Virus record (IMG/VR): IMGVR_UViG_3300042509_001467
Span: 16,668 to 80,667 of that record
Length of the DNA stretch: 64,000 nucleotides
Source: a virus
Reading direction: 5' to 3' (one strand)
The translations under genes and the position numbers were made by a program. This document shows, piece by piece, positions 984-12,653 of this stretch. Position 1 is the stretch's first letter, and each line of letters begins with the position of its first letter. The notes beneath the pieces were generated by a model. It saw only the letters and a list, made by a program, of their open reading frames with translations. It made no database searches and had not been told where the DNA came from.

Positions 984-1472
984 TTACTCGTCGGTGGTCG
1001 GTTGCATACTAGACTCTGGAAAGTTCAGGTACGCAAATGATTTGTGTAGCTCAATCGCTTTGGCGTCGTACACTCTAGCCGCTTCTTCGGCGGTGTCGTA
1101 TACTCCAAGATATTGCTTCTTATAATCAACCATGATTACTGATTGGAATTTTCCGCTCCCCACTTGGGACACTCCGCGAAATCCAGATTTGGATTGCACG
1201 GTTCGGTGTCGCTTCCTGCAATTCTCAGCGTTAGTGCAATTCTGCAAGTTTGCAACCCGATTGTCCAACTTGTCGCCGTTGATATGGTCAGTCTGCAATC
1301 CTTCCGGGGTCATGTTGATAACGCGGTGCATCATGATCCCGAACCCTGGCTTTACCATGCGATAGGCGTAACCCTTGCCAGTAAGCATCCAAGAGTATCG
1401 AGCCAACGGCGCGTACCACTCGTCGTCCACCGTCACGACTAAATCTGAATTGCTGAGTTTGATATGCTTCAT
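984..1472 (-). CDS. HNH endonuclease with C-terminal AP2 DNA-binding domain
   Basis: MHRVI..DHINGDKLDNRVANL..EN (HNH_3 type) followed by SGFRGVS..YLGVYDTAEEAARVYD..LNFP (AP2). Confidence 0.92.
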   Translation of the reverse strand: MKHIKLSNSDLVVTVDDEWYAPLARYSWMLTGKGYAYRMVKPGFGIMMHRVINMTPEGLQTDHINGDKLDNRVANLQNCTNAENCRKRHRTVQSKSGFRGVSQVGSGKFQSVIMVDYKKQYLGVYDTAEEAARVYDAKAIELHKSFAYLNFPESSMQPTTDE

Positions 1473-8869: not shown

Positions 8870-9237
8870 GGTTGGGTTTTCTCCGGTTTGTATAGTCCCA
8901 TAACATAGTTATATTCATCATCGCTGACTGGGATATCTTGCTCACTCATATTGTCTAGCCCAAGACATAGGATTGATTGAATCTCTTGCATCACCTCTGG
9001 CGGCAGCTTGCCGACATTCTCACCTTCTAACCTGATTAGAACATTGTCGCCTAACCCAGTCTCATCATGCGGCATATCCCAGTACCCATTAAGGTAGTAA
9101 TCGTTAGGCTCAAGGCAATACACCCGCACTCCTGCAGTAATTGCGTCCTGCTCTTCTTCGTCTGATGTAAAGCAGAAGTTCTCGCACTCCTTTTCTTCAT
9201 GCAGGTACTTGTAGTCGTCAACGTCGTATATTTTCAT
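8866..9237 (-). CDS. Acidic hypothetical early protein
   Basis: Operon packing. Confidence 0.65.
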   Translation of the reverse strand: MKIYDVDDYKYLHEEKECENFCFTSDEEEQDAITAGVRVYCLEPNDYYLNGYWDMPHDETGLGDNVLIRLEGENVGKLPPEVMQEIQSILCLGLDNMSEQDIPVSDDEYNYVMGLYKPEKTQP

Positions 9238-9650
9238 GCTGGTTCTCCGTTTTGAAACATCTTAAACTCTGCCCCATGGTCCAGGTAATCGAGGCTCTTA
9301 GATAAATCCTCCCTGATTTCTGCGTCGTAGTCGCGCTTAGATTTTACGTGAGATTCAAGGTATGCCCCTTCTGATTTCTCATCAAAATCATATCTAGCGC
9401 AGGTCTTGAGTGCCATTTCAAAGCTTCCGAGATGCCCGATATGAACGTCAATTACCTCATGTCCGCACTCACGGGTGTAGATGTCTTTTAGCTCAAACGC
9501 TTGGCACTTTCCGTCATCGTTTCGCGATATGTAGTACTTGCCAAACATTAGACAATCGTCTTTAATCTCAACCTGGGTCGTCTTAATACCCATAAGTGCC
9601 GTGTACCTTTTTGCGGTGTTGATCTCTTCGTTAGTAAATGTTTTGTTCAT
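9234..9650 (-). CDS. Hypothetical early protein
   Basis: AGGATAGA RBS. Confidence 0.7.
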   Translation of the reverse strand: MNKTFTNEEINTAKRYTALMGIKTTQVEIKDDCLMFGKYYISRNDDGKCQAFELKDIYTRECGHEVIDVHIGHLGSFEMALKTCARYDFDEKSEGAYLESHVKSKRDYDAEIREDLSKSLDYLDHGAEFKMFQNGEPA

Positions 9651-9663
9651 TGTTTTCTATCCT

Positions 9664-9731
9664 GCTATGAGTTCGGCATAGCTCCCTAGAATCTTTGGAC
9701 TCTAGGCAACCCTGCCGGGGTTGCTTTACTC
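9664..9731 (-). ncRNA. Unassigned structured RNA (three hairpins with potential pseudoknots)
   Basis: GCAACCC/GGGUUGC, CUAGAGUC/GAUUCUAG and GCUAUG/CAUAGC fill the intergenic gap up to the RBS. Confidence 0.6.
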
Positions 9732-9962
9732 TTACTCTACCGGGGCGCACCCTGGCTTATACATCTTTTGCCACGGTTCATGGCGCATAAACCTTTCGGC
9801 GTGGTCAATGTTCATGCCCTTAAACATCCGTTTCTCTTGGTGCATCCAGATTTTGACTAGCCCAGTGCTTCGGTCTACGAATTCCAGCCACCACCCGCCA
9901 TGTCGTTTGCCCATCCACTCAAGCTGCAATACGTGAGTATCATTCTGCTCAATGATCGTCAT
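9732..9962 (-). CDS. Hypothetical early protein
   Basis: Operon packing. Confidence 0.6.
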   Translation of the reverse strand: MTIIEQNDTHVLQLEWMGKRHGGWWLEFVDRSTGLVKIWMHQEKRMFKGMNIDHAERFMRHEPWQKMYKPGCAPVE

Positions 9963-10156
9963 AATTTATTCACCATCGCGCTAGGGTCTAGCCACGGGTT
10001 GATACCATCCGCATCCGTGACTCTAAACCTTTCGAATCCTTGATCTATCGCCCATTTCTTAGCCTCTTCGAACCGTGACCCATCGCCGACGGTGATAACA
10101 TCTTCTGCCCATTCCGGGTCACCCTTTCGGTGTCCCCATAATACGAATTCTCTCAT
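9959..10156 (-). CDS. Hypothetical early protein
   Basis: Operon packing; AGGAGG upstream. Confidence 0.65.
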   Translation of the reverse strand: MREFVLWGHRKGDPEWAEDVITVGDGSRFEEAKKWAIDQGFERFRVTDADGINPWLDPSAMVNKL

Positions 10157-10329
10157 AGTTCCATTGCCTCCTGCTCTCTCGATTGTTGCACCAGGTCTGC
10201 CGCATCGAAGAGGGGTTGAAATTGGCGCGTCATCTCTGCCGCCATTTGGTCATTGATTGCCCTCTTTGCGTCTGCCGGGTTTAACCCGGCATATACGGTC
10301 TTTTGGTTTATGATAATCTCAATTCTCAT
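10153..10329 (-). CDS. Hypothetical early protein (58 aa, not in ORF track)
   Basis: MRIEIIINQKTVYAGLNPADAK...; 4-nt overlaps on both sides. Confidence 0.55.
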   Translation of the reverse strand: MRIEIIINQKTVYAGLNPADAKRAINDQMAAEMTRQFQPLFDAADLVQQSREQEAMEL

Positions 10330-10523
10330 GCCTTCGCCTCATCAGCATTGAATAGCTTCACGATCTGGCACTCTGCACCAGGTGCGAAGCACCTTTGCCC
10401 TAAGCTGCATCCGGTAATCGGACGCCATAGCTCCATCATTGACCATTGGCTAGAGTCCCAATCCGATCTAACGCGCCACGCGTGATTCTTATACTTCACG
10501 ATTGAGCCGCTTGGAATAATCAC
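10326..10523 (-). CDS. Hypothetical early protein
   Basis: GTG start with AGGAGG RBS. Confidence 0.6.
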   Translation of the reverse strand: MIIPSGSIVKYKNHAWRVRSDWDSSQWSMMELWRPITGCSLGQRCFAPGAECQIVKLFNADEAKA

Positions 10524-10618
10524 GCTCTGAACCTCCTGGCGATTCTTCGAAGTTTGAGGGTGCTGATCTTGGTCCTGTTAACGTGACCTTTGCCTTGATA
10601 TGTTTTGATTGTATCCAT
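10520..10618 (-). CDS. 32-aa basic Arg-rich peptide directly downstream of the twister ribozyme
   Basis: MDTIKTYQGKGHVNRTKISTLKLRRIARRFRA; AGGATAG RBS; stop overlaps the next start (GTGA). Confidence 0.55.
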   Translation of the reverse strand: MDTIKTYQGKGHVNRTKISTLKLRRIARRFRA

Positions 10619-10626
10619 GTGTCTAT

Positions 10627-10676
10627 CCTCACTCTCTATTTTCACGGGCTTGTGACCGTCCATGGCTAGATTAAGG
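10627..10676 (-). ncRNA. Twister self-cleaving ribozyme, type P1
   Basis: Minus-strand RNA CCU-UAA-UCUA-GCC-AUGG-ACGG-UCACAAGC-CCGU-GAAAA-UAGA-GAGUG-AGG. P1 CCU/AGG, P2 UCUA/UAGA, P4 ACGG/CCGU; loop CAC pairs with GUG and GC pairs with GC for the two pseudoknots; invariant UAA and GAG in L1. Predicted cut U10673/A10672. Confidence 0.93.
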
Positions 10677-10702
10677 GTGCCAGGTGCTAACCTGGCATAG
10701 TG

Positions 10703-11119
10703 TTACTTGATCTTTGAGAGTGTCCAGCCATCCTCAGTCTTGCCATTGAATGTCTGCTCTAGAGTCCAGCCCAATTCTTTAAGCGCGTTGATCACTGATG
10801 ATTCACCCGCTGCCGAGGTTCGCGCGATCTTGTTATGCTCATCGCTTCCATGAGTGTAAATCCATCTTAGAAAATCTGCCATGACTGCCGAGGTCTTGCA
10901 ATACCCATACCCGCTGGCATACGCTACCTTTTCGCCTCGATGGTTACTGATTCGCGGGCATGACCCCCAGGTACTAGACTTGTTGTAGCTGATTGCGAAT
11001 CCGGCGCGTCCAGTGCCGTACTCTGAGTTGATTTGATTTACTAACACTTGCGCGTATTCTTGTGCGCGTAATTCAAGCGTCGTTAGTTTAGGTGTTTTGG
11101 TTGTTGTTGTATCGCTCAT
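10703..11119 (-). CDS. Conserved early protein (homolog of 47666..48052)
   Basis: S.TWG..P, ASG.GY.K.SA, L.W, EH.KI..AG, AL.E.G..LE shared with the phage B gene. Confidence 0.8.
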   Translation of the reverse strand: MSDTTTTKTPKLTTLELRAQEYAQVLVNQINSEYGTGRAGFAISYNKSSTWGSCPRISNHRGEKVAYASGYGYCKTSAVMADFLRWIYTHGSDEHNKIARTSAAGESSVINALKELGWTLEQTFNGKTEDGWTLSKIK

Positions 11120-11155
11120 TTGGTTTATCCTTAGTCTTGATTGCTGGTCATTGCG

Positions 11156-11410
11156 TTAGTTTTGTACGCTCATGTGGTCACTGTAGCTGCTCAGATACTC
11201 CTGCAGGTACTCAGGGTCATTATCACGCTTTGCGGCCGCTATCTCTGAGCGAATCTCTTCCATGTCCCCGGCATCGTCTATAATCACTGAGCGTTTACCC
11301 TGGCTGATTTGGTAGTAATGGCATCCGAACCGGTTTACTAGCTTAACTGTATATTTGGTCTTAGGTCGCGCCACTGTAAAGAGTGAACCGTTCAGGTATT
11401 CCGGTGTCAT
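11156..11410 (-). CDS. Hypothetical early protein
   Basis: Start at MTPEY overlapping the upstream stop. Confidence 0.55.
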   Translation of the reverse strand: MTPEYLNGSLFTVARPKTKYTVKLVNRFGCHYYQISQGKRSVIIDDAGDMEEIRSEIAAAKRDNDPEYLQEYLSSYSDHMSVQN

Positions 11411-11853
11411 ACAACACCCCACATCTCTTGCCCGTCCACGTACAATGTCATATTGCCATGATCTGAGACCACCAGGTAAGTACCCGATGGATCGTCTGGC
11501 AATTCGTCGCACTTGATCAAATCGCCATCGTAAATGTCATGTTCTAGACTCTCTTGGCTGATCCAATACCCGAAGTCTGAACCATCTCCCTCATGCGCTC
11601 CAAAGTACGCGTATGGTGGTGCAATAGCGTTCATCTCATCGAAGAGAATGTCATTCAGGTACTCGTCCAGTAGGTCATCGTCCCCAACCTCCTCATCAGT
11701 TAGGCGATTCAATGCATCCTGAATCTCTTCGGGTAGCGTGAAGGATGAATTGTACTCTTTGAGTACGTCCACGAAGTCAGGAATGAGATCGGCTGCGATG
11801 TGCGTACCATGTGAGATGGTGCCGAGTGGTGCGAATTGTTTTGATCGTGTCAT
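11407..11853 (-). CDS. Acidic conserved phage early protein
   Basis: GTISHGT..DLIP.F; APPY.YFGAHEGDGSDFGYW; VSDHGN; GGAGGA RBS. Confidence 0.75.
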   Translation of the reverse strand: MTRSKQFAPLGTISHGTHIAADLIPDFVDVLKEYNSSFTLPEEIQDALNRLTDEEVGDDDLLDEYLNDILFDEMNAIAPPYAYFGAHEGDGSDFGYWISQESLEHDIYDGDLIKCDELPDDPSGTYLVVSDHGNMTLYVDGQEMWGVV

Positions 11854-12062
11854 TAAAATAGTCCTCCAAATTGGCAATGCTGCCGCATCTCTTTTTCGCT
11901 CATGGGCTCGCAAGTCATGCGCTCGATTGTTTCTAGGCATGATTGGTCCGACTTTTGGGACCAGAAACGCTTTAGATCGTCTAGGTCCTCTTGGTAAAAC
12001 CTGCTGCCGGGAGTGAGATGCTTCGAAGCTAGTTTAAAAGCTTTTTGCTGTAATCGTGTCAT
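11853..12062 (-). CDS. First gene of early operon, hypothetical
   Basis: GGATA RBS; preceded by a 5' hairpin and promoter. Confidence 0.6.
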   Translation of the reverse strand: MTRLQQKAFKLASKHLTPGSRFYQEDLDDLKRFWSQKSDQSCLETIERMTCEPMSEKEMRQHCQFGGLF

Positions 12063-12099
12063 TTTGGTTATCCATGCAGCTCGCCGAGCTACGTTTAAG

Positions 12100-12108
12100 A
12101 TATTAGCA
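12100..12108 (-). promoter_or_regulatory. Early promoter, extended -10 (TGC-TAATAT)
   Basis: Located ~40 nt upstream of the first leftward gene; leader begins with hairpin GUAGCUC/GAGCUGC. Confidence 0.6.
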
Positions 12109-12653
12109 CAGTATTTTCTAAACTGTATACTTCCGGTATCCTATTTTGTGCAAGTCAGGTATTTATACTGTATTCACTGAATACATTTATATTCAGATTT
12201 TTTTGTTTTTTGGAATATGAGCTTATTGCAAACAATTTGCAATAGTGTGATCCGACAATAAGCCAAGACGCCATTTGGTACGCGCTTCCAACCTTGTACC
12301 TATCCCTAGAAGTTCCGGCGCAGCTTTGTACCTTTTCTTGCGTGTATATAGTGTGTGGTACGTTTGTCTACACGTTTTACGTTAAAATTAATTCGTTCGA
12401 TTTCCTAATTGTTGCGTGTGCAAGTATTTAGGTAGGGGGTACGGGGGACGAGCGGTTGAATTGTAGGGTATGTACCCCAACACATATGCCGACCTATTTT
12501 CAATTACCCCTTGCTCGTACCTACTCTCGATCTCAAGTTCAATTCAGCCTACGTAGCGACAGCGAATGTAGGCGTGTATTTTTCTTTTGAACCTAAATCA
12601 AGTGCCATAACGTTATTCCAAGACTTTATTTAAAAACCTGGTAATTTTAACAG

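Follow-up and report, generated by a model that had tools for sequence, protein, structure and literature searches.

Introduction

What does a twister ribozyme do when it lies between two genes of a phage operon? The twister class and its optional stem P0 are known already, and in reviews of 2016 and 2019 the biological role of these ribozymes counted as speculative or largely elusive; a literature search for papers testing twister function in DNA phages found none. An initial annotation of the locus described here, drawn from the DNA letters, reported a twister whose P1 stem hides the ribosome-binding site of the next gene and which is preceded by a hairpin, and interpreted the whole as a cassette that both splits the operon transcript and switches translation. 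We examined the motif, its surroundings, and its relatives in other phages. The explanation that we prefer, and consider probable, is that a minimal type-P1 twister, with P0 present and P3 and P5 absent, splits an early polycistronic RNA.

Genomic setting

The window (the whole stretch of DNA that was analysed, 64,000 nucleotides, to which all coordinates of the locus refer) belongs to the 80.7-kb record of an uncultured freshwater tailed phage, whose plus-strand genes include an M15 endolysin and the large terminase. A leftward minus-strand operon, presumably an early operon, starts near position 12060 with small overlapping ORFs and continues with Gam-like, Erf-like and helicase genes; the genes downstream of the twister include ones for replication and recombination. 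It has only three gaps; the twister lies in one of them, 84 nt long, in sense orientation. The gene upstream of this gap (10703–11119, minus strand) encodes 138 aa and ends with a TAA stop (10705–10703) that precedes the hairpin by 5 nt. The 138-aa protein matched no Pfam or PHROG family. Three homologues were found at 89%, 49% and 46% identity (the first of them is P0001), and the small family so formed has the invariant motifs TWG, RGxK, ASGxGY, and GKTEDG.

On the other side of the gap, a putative gene of 32 codons (10520–10618, minus strand) extends from ATG 10618 to a TGA stop (10522–10520), which shares bases with the next gene's GTG start in the sequence GTGA. No homologues of the 47- and 32-codon downstream ORF were found. 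The next gene (10326–10523, minus strand; 65 aa), which has its own AGGAGG 8 nt upstream of the GTG start, is the first clearly gene-like ORF on the predicted 3′ cleavage product. The heptamer AGGAUAG, found 3′ of the twister, also precedes the ATG of another 138-aa gene (9234–9650), which lends weak support to AUG 10618 as a candidate start. The same heptamer occurs in the operon's other gap of about 80 nt (9651–9731, minus strand), where a long imperfect hairpin of about 20 bp (−28.8 kcal/mol, z −4.1; none of 200 shuffles folded as well) is followed by AGGAUAGAAAACAAUG. This hairpin has no U-tract and no Rfam match, and may mark a site at which the same transcript is processed in the manner of RNase III.

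A megablast of positions 9500–12500 against GenBank phages returned no match, and a search of IMG/VR for close relatives by means of the 138-aa upstream protein and the Gam-like protein found none. A profile of the 138-aa family located six distant loci encoding homologues; no twister was found in the five phage records among them, and a scan of the metagenome likewise found none. Phage DNA was present in lake-water metagenomes, where 23 listed runs carry at least part of the stretch; no RNA run was listed as containing it. In the four runs examined, low-depth DNA contigs were identical wherever they covered it, with no variants.

Architecture of the ribozyme core

The type-P1 twister core spans 52 nt (10626–10677, minus strand) and comprises P1, P2, P4, loop L4, T1, and a predicted T2, without P3 or P5; its stems follow the order 5′-P1-P2-P4-P2′-P1′-3′, and its ends lie in P1. 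In the RF03160 alignment P1 has 3 bp, in which C10676, C10675 and U10674 pair with A10629, G10628 and G10627 (in the order 5′ strand, 3′ strand); the outer C10677/A10626 is a mismatch outside this stem. The 5′ strand of P1, CCU (10674–10676), is predicted to leave with the upstream fragment on cleavage, while the 3′ strand, AGG (10627–10629), is also the centre of a Shine-Dalgarno (SD) sequence, GAGGA. The predicted scissile bond, U10673/A10672, is the U-A of the conserved UAA of J1-2, directly 3′ of the P1 5′ strand. These two nucleotides align to RF03160 model positions 5 and 6, the UAA junction is invariant in the 44-sequence alignment presented below (among the matches listed), and the cleavage site lies where the family description places it (PMC5408937).

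Within P1, the 4-bp stem P2 joins UCUA (10670–10667) to UAGA (10638–10635), and P4, of 3–4 bp, joins ACG (10659–10657) to CGU (10646–10644) around the L4 loop GUCACAAGCC (10656–10647). T1 pairs CAC (10654–10652) with GUG (10632–10630), in which G10630 is also the first base of GAGGA, and T2 would pair GC (10666–10665) with GC (10649–10648). The conserved nucleotides of L1 and L4 are all present (GCC following P2, the loop region CGGUCNCAAGCCCG, AA preceding P2′, and GAGNG). The initial annotation had claimed that every twister element was present and correctly paired, and the full-length RF03160 alignment agrees; the positions it gave for P1, the cut site, the hairpin, and the overlap of AGG with the ribosome-binding site were all correct.

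The optional stem P3, which takes up 16 RF03160 model positions, is deleted and replaced by a linker, AUGG. The CCAUGG that stands in place of P3 (10660–10665, minus strand) is complementary to CAUGG across AUG 10618 (10615–10619), and the centroid fold predicted for the 3′ cleavage product contains a pairing of the linker with the start codon. As the sequence is a 5-bp palindrome, this complementarity is probably due to chance.

Evidence that the motif is genuine

Perhaps the first matter to settle is whether the motif is real, given that a default Rfam scan at the gathering threshold reported nothing at all. The Rfam twister-P1 check proposed in the initial annotation did return a match, to RF03160 over its full length (1–68 of 68 model positions), at 52.0 bits as against a gathering score of 67.2 (E 4.8e-11 with 301 bases searched). 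The match had an E of 1e-8 when the whole 64-kb window was compared in a permissive scan with all 4227 Rfam families, none of which gave any other match at E ≤ 1, and an E of 3.1e-12 on the whole 80.7-kb phage record. No second twister was found in that record, where 10626–10677 is the sole copy, and no further ribozyme or structured RNA was found there at E ≤ 1. The gathering score is a curation threshold, not a biological criterion, and the most likely reason for a score below it is the missing P3 stem. Ten sibling phage twisters tested in nine loci (L074, L106, L144, L139, L034, L008, L054, L055, and L061), nine of the ten without P3, scored 45–59 bits on RF03160, all of them below 67.2. 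A sub-threshold score is therefore normal for the class, and it follows that standard Rfam annotation overlooks phage twisters of this minimal kind.

To place the motif among its relatives, we searched IMG/VR with two exact-pattern scans for the L4 loop (at least 100 loci each) and used a simple descriptor to pick 88 distinct type-P1 phage twisters among the matches listed. The first pattern scan selected for A in L4 and is biased to the CAC variant; the descriptor required P2 to pair, leaving P1, the P4 closing pair, and T1 unconstrained. Half of the 88 (among the matches listed) lack P3, as the present copy does. All 26 columns that are invariant in an alignment of 44 P3-less phage twisters (alignment A2, consisting of the present twister and 43 P3-less relatives among the matches listed) are found in 10626–10677.

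The departures of the motif from the Rfam consensus are themselves informative. In L4 it has A for C, and in the 3′ strand of L1 it has U for G, two changes that keep T1 paired, as CAC/GUG where Rfam has CCC/GGG; the change in L4 is the only one in the core, and it is compensated in T1. Among the matches listed, the middle pair of T1 is Watson-Crick in 87 of the 88 phage twisters, the types being A-U (71), C-G (8), U-A (5), and G-C (3). P2 is UCUA/UAGA instead of the usual UGCA/UGCA, that is, two double changes that are fully compensatory, and this version was seen once among the 88 (again among the matches listed). In alignment A2, 95.9% of cells were paired under the structure with both pseudoknots, and 10 pairs had changed on both sides; none of 500 shuffles reached the observed values, and slid controls were 19–48% paired. 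P1 and the closing pair of P4 covary across these 44 phage twisters (among the matches listed). The 100% pairing of P2 in A2 is no independent evidence because the filter imposed it, and the pairing of T2 is not confirmable by covariation because its GC dinucleotides, both present here, are invariant in 44 of 44 sequences (among the matches listed). A model built from the P3-less phage twisters (R1) gave 68.5 bits and an E of 4e-17 for 10626–10677, which is one of its 44 sequences.

Could the motif nevertheless be a chance match or an inactive relic? Its score below the Rfam gathering score and its short P1 would suit such a reading. Against it stand the E of the match over the window, the presence of every invariant core nucleotide, two independent compensatory changes that preserve P2 and T1, an identical sequence in several lake metagenomes, and the finding that every sibling phage twister tested also falls under the cut-off. 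We regard chance or decay as extremely unlikely. Judged by its sequence, 10626–10677 is a genuine type-P1 twister motif, and it is predicted to cleave.

R1 also gave one weak match elsewhere, at 10365–10414 on the minus strand inside the 65-aa gene (11.4 bits, E 1.4), where AUGCAGC ... UGCAGAGUG is similar to the P2 strands and T1 strand usual in the family. Because it has no UAA junction, lacks the L4 loop altogether and is intragenic, we rejected it. It is either a chance match or a decayed copy.

The hairpin upstream of the predicted cut

A stem-loop of UGCCAGGU/ACCUGGCA (10678–10697, minus strand; 8 bp, loop UAGC) lies 1 nt 5′ of P1, outside the catalytic core. Its folding energy is −13.1 kcal/mol (z −3.1), and 2 of 200 shuffles folded as well. 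P0 is one of three optional twister stems (PMC5408937), and the hairpin appears to correspond to it; as a match to P0 it is no new addition to the ribozyme.

We counted such hairpins in the family as those with at least 5 bp and −7 kcal/mol or stronger, ending no more than 6 nt from the cleavage-site U. Among the matches listed, 48 of 83 non-redundant phage twisters (58%) have a hairpin next to the cut site, as compared with 11% of random same-strand windows and 12.5% of shuffles, an enrichment of about 5-fold; the remaining 42% of the 83 have no detectable hairpin. The earlier observation of a hairpin just 5′ of the cut is thus borne out, at 10697–10678 and as a recurrent feature. The family hairpins (among the matches listed) are rich in GC (median −11.9 kcal/mol) and stand mostly 0 ± 1 nt from P1 (mode 0); their 3′ ends lie 0–5 nt from the cut, leaving tails of 1–6 nt. 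An RNA that ends in a stable hairpin and a short tail is protected against the 3′ exonucleases and poly(A) polymerase of bacteria.

An alternative is that the hairpin is a purely structural P0, which stacks on P1, itself short, and keeps the core from misfolding with upstream coding RNA, with no part in protecting a 3′ end. It is an optional stem of the published twister consensus, and by adjoining P1 (modal spacer of 0 nt) it has a geometry that permits coaxial stacking; P0 could serve ribozyme folding instead of end protection. However, P1 is no shorter where a hairpin is present: its median length is 4 bp both with and without one (p = 0.82, among the matches listed), and we rejected the notion of P0 as compensation for shortness in P1. 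Though conserved, P1 is itself dispensable for twister cleavage (PMC5408937), so a helper for it is not obviously needed. The strength of these GC-rich hairpins and their short tails are, moreover, what would be expected of a 3′-end protector. We consider a solely structural role possible enough to weigh, if on balance rather doubtful; the two roles are not exclusive.

The hairpin might also be a partial transcription terminator or pause site, with the twister merely trimming read-through. It begins 5 nt after a stop codon, and the same stem was flagged as terminator-like on the plus strand, but there are no plus-strand genes here. On the gene strand it is followed by CCCUUAAUCUAG, with no U-tract, and was not flagged, and we rejected an intrinsic terminator on that strand for these reasons. 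The region showed no excess of terminator-like sites, having 8 where shuffles had 6.8. Termination or pausing is, in our judgment, very unlikely to account for the hairpin.

The candidate gene start downstream of the predicted cut

The SD-like GAGGA (10626–10630, minus strand) lies 7 nt before ATG 10618 and would form a duplex of −8.2 kcal/mol with the anti-SD; the start codon comes 11 nt after GAGUG. Gene starts were counted in the family as an SD with a start codon that opens an ORF of at least 30 codons, no more than 50 nt downstream. Among the matches listed, such a start follows 40 of 82 phage twisters (49%), compared with 10% of random positions, and 51% of the 82 have no nearby start. 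The start codon stands a median of 29 nt beyond the end of GAGNG, and the SD usually starts 5–20 nt beyond P1 (phage twisters among the matches listed). The succession of hairpin, twister, and gene start is a recurrent phage module that the present locus typifies; the context is common without being obligatory.

Other arrangements were encountered in the course of these scans. L106 carries a Pistol ribozyme (1133–1199, plus strand; 63 bits, above the cut-off) about 420 nt upstream of its twister, which places different self-cleaving classes in one phage operon. Many of the L4-pattern matches are circularly permuted (type-P5-like) twisters (L012, L031, L037, L064, L065, L088, L090, L101, and others), whose P1 forms a closed, GC-rich hairpin immediately 5′ of the cut, with AGGAGG and ATG following within about 10–25 nt of P4; some contigs hold arrays of them, such as L037 with five copies and L101 with three. 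Either topology would leave a stable hairpin at the end of the upstream cleavage product.

Does cleavage unmask the Shine-Dalgarno sequence?

The initial annotation had the ribosome-binding site include the 3′ strand of P1, and this holds: AGG 10629–10627 lies within the SD GAGGA. It had gone on to propose that cleavage exposes the site and so switches translation, and here the results are divided. In a nested folding model, which ignores pseudoknots, AGG had an unpaired probability of 0.04–0.06 in the precursor and 0.74–0.90 in the 3′ product. The pairing partner in the precursor is CCU 10676–10674, which lies 5′ of the predicted cut and would leave with it. Exposure is thus predicted, but for only three of the five SD bases, and G10630 would stay in T1.

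Should unmasking be the main function, P1 and the compact fold would hide the SD until cleavage turned translation on. The same three bases do serve as the 3′ strand of P1 and as the SD core, and the predicted change from about 0.05 is large; among 38 twisters modelled (among the matches listed), the present copy alone goes from a paired (<0.3) to an open (>0.6) SD. There is also a second natural case of an SD in P1, L139 (1833–1883, minus strand), where the P1 3′ strand AAGG lies inside AAGGAGA, the SD of the next gene, whose ATG, 14 nt after GAGAG, opens an ORF of 130 aa; the model predicts no SD unmasking on cleavage for L139. Unmasking of an SD on cleavage is a feature of engineered HHR and twister switches, and in an engineered twister with its SD in P1, eGFP was 5-fold higher when the ribozyme was active (PMC5052635).

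Other results speak against it. P1 has just 3 bp, and its 3′ strand is purine-rich throughout the family (63–80% purines per position, among the matches listed), so that AGG in P1 is by itself no sign of a ribosome-binding site. In most relatives the SD is separate from P1, and cleavage leaves the median predicted accessibility where it was, at 0.52 before and 0.51 after (n = 38, among the matches listed). Twister ranks with the ribozymes that cleave fastest (PMC5408937), so a masked state would be short-lived, and with no ligand or sensor domain it would be unregulated. After cleavage the folded core would still abut the SD, and the ORF that would gain is the putative 32-codon gene, for which no homologue was found. 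Because nothing suggests regulated cleavage, the word switch overstates what would be a constitutive maturation step. Of the proposed switch, then, the SD overlap and its predicted unmasking stand, and they are set against a 3-bp P1, an unchanged family median, and no hint of regulation. The overlap of the SD with P1 is unusual in the family; a switch function is only partly supported, and we judge it unlikely to be the main function.

It is equally doubtful, though worth stating, that the present copy and L139 are natural counterparts of the engineered twister, and that their first downstream cistron stays untranslated until the RNA has cut itself; with the start packed 11 nt after the ribozyme, translation would on this reading have to wait for the cut. 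If so, the 65-aa gene, whose start overlaps the stop of that cistron, would likewise be dependent through coupling, the expression of distal early genes would be timed by, or dependent on, the folding of the ribozyme, and a phage twister would have a concrete, testable function.

A model for transcript splitting

The splitting of the operon transcript is the best-supported reading because a hairpin on one side (58%) and an SD and start on the other (49%, both among the matches listed) recur around phage twisters, and these context statistics back phage twisters as intercistronic mRNA-processing sites. The part of the initial annotation that described an mRNA-splitting cassette fits this context, cleavage itself being predicted. 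Polycistronic-transcript processing has also been suggested for bacterial and phage-associated twisters (PMC6765202).

The proposed order of events is as follows. The ribozyme would fold co-transcriptionally on the polycistronic RNA and would cut in vivo between U10673 and A10672, with no hint of regulation. The upstream RNA would then end in the P0 hairpin followed by CCCUU with a 2′,3′-cyclic phosphate, an end on which 3′ exonucleases and polyadenylation would act poorly. The downstream RNA would start with a 5′-OH tucked in the remaining fold of P2, P4, T1, and T2, which would run directly into GAGGA and AUG 10618. One transcript would in this way become two RNAs with independent fates, and no host enzyme would be needed. 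A benefit to the stability of the downstream RNA is not a given, since a twister without SD masking, when put into a 5′ UTR in E. coli, left both mRNA level and expression unchanged (PMC5052635). Finally, loss of the 5′ strand of P1 would free three SD bases and may modestly raise translation of the first downstream ORF. Such a gain is, tentatively, an extra that this compact copy might enjoy, and we treat the freed bases as a by-product of tight packing, not as the purpose of the module.

Taken alone, the copy at 10626–10677 adds little; it is one member of a large class, the minimal phage twisters missed at the Rfam threshold, as Rfam's default scan misses this one. The useful by-products of the analysis are the recognition of that gap in annotation and the context statistics. 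Since it is the most compact case among the matches listed, it would be a convenient construct for testing the effect of cleavage on translation, beyond that on RNA stability.

Comparison with known systems

The closest described family is the type-P1 twister RF03160 (Roth et al. 2014, per PMC5408937), with which the present copy shares the P1-P2-P4 order, the UAA junction, the conserved L1 and L4 nucleotides, T1 and, by prediction, T2, the optional upstream P0, and a location near phage genes. It differs in lacking P3 and P5, which brings it to 52 nt and most likely accounts for its score of 52 bits (<67.2), and in having a T1 with A-U instead of C-G as its middle pair, a P2 of UCUA/UAGA, and a P1 of 3 bp.

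Nearer still are the P3-less CAC/GUG phage twisters (L061:6971–7022, L034:547–598, and L055:463–513), which are near-identical in architecture and length and have the same layout of hairpin, ribozyme, and gene start; L061 differs from 10626–10677 solely at the first position of P1, the two inner pairs of P2, and two loop or linker bases. In these relatives the SD (usually AGGAGG) is separate, 5–20 nt past P1, and the start lies 20–35 nt after GAGUG, whereas in the present copy the start comes only 11 nt after GAGUG and the SD overlaps both T1 and P1.

That overlap recalls the 'type P1 SD' twister of Felletti et al. (2016), which produced a 5-fold effect on eGFP with low absolute expression, the latter owing to the ribozyme core, which remains beside the SD (PMC5052635). 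In both cases the 3′ strand of P1 contains the SD and the 5′ strand the anti-SD, the SD is freed by cleavage (a prediction here), and the core stays just upstream. The engineered RNA is artificial, derived from the env-9 twister, with a designed full SD/anti-SD helix; in the phage copy only three SD bases are paired, and any effect is a prediction.

The splitting of the transcript has its own parallel. T7-like phages have RNase III processing hairpins between early genes, and RNase III leaves ends with a 3′-OH and a 5′-phosphate. At those sites, as would be the case here, the cut is intercistronic, the upstream mRNA ends in a stable hairpin, and the new 5′ end lies just before the ribosome-binding site of the next gene. 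The phage twister would differ in that the RNA cuts itself, and the predicted ends are a 2′,3′-cyclic phosphate and a 5′-OH.
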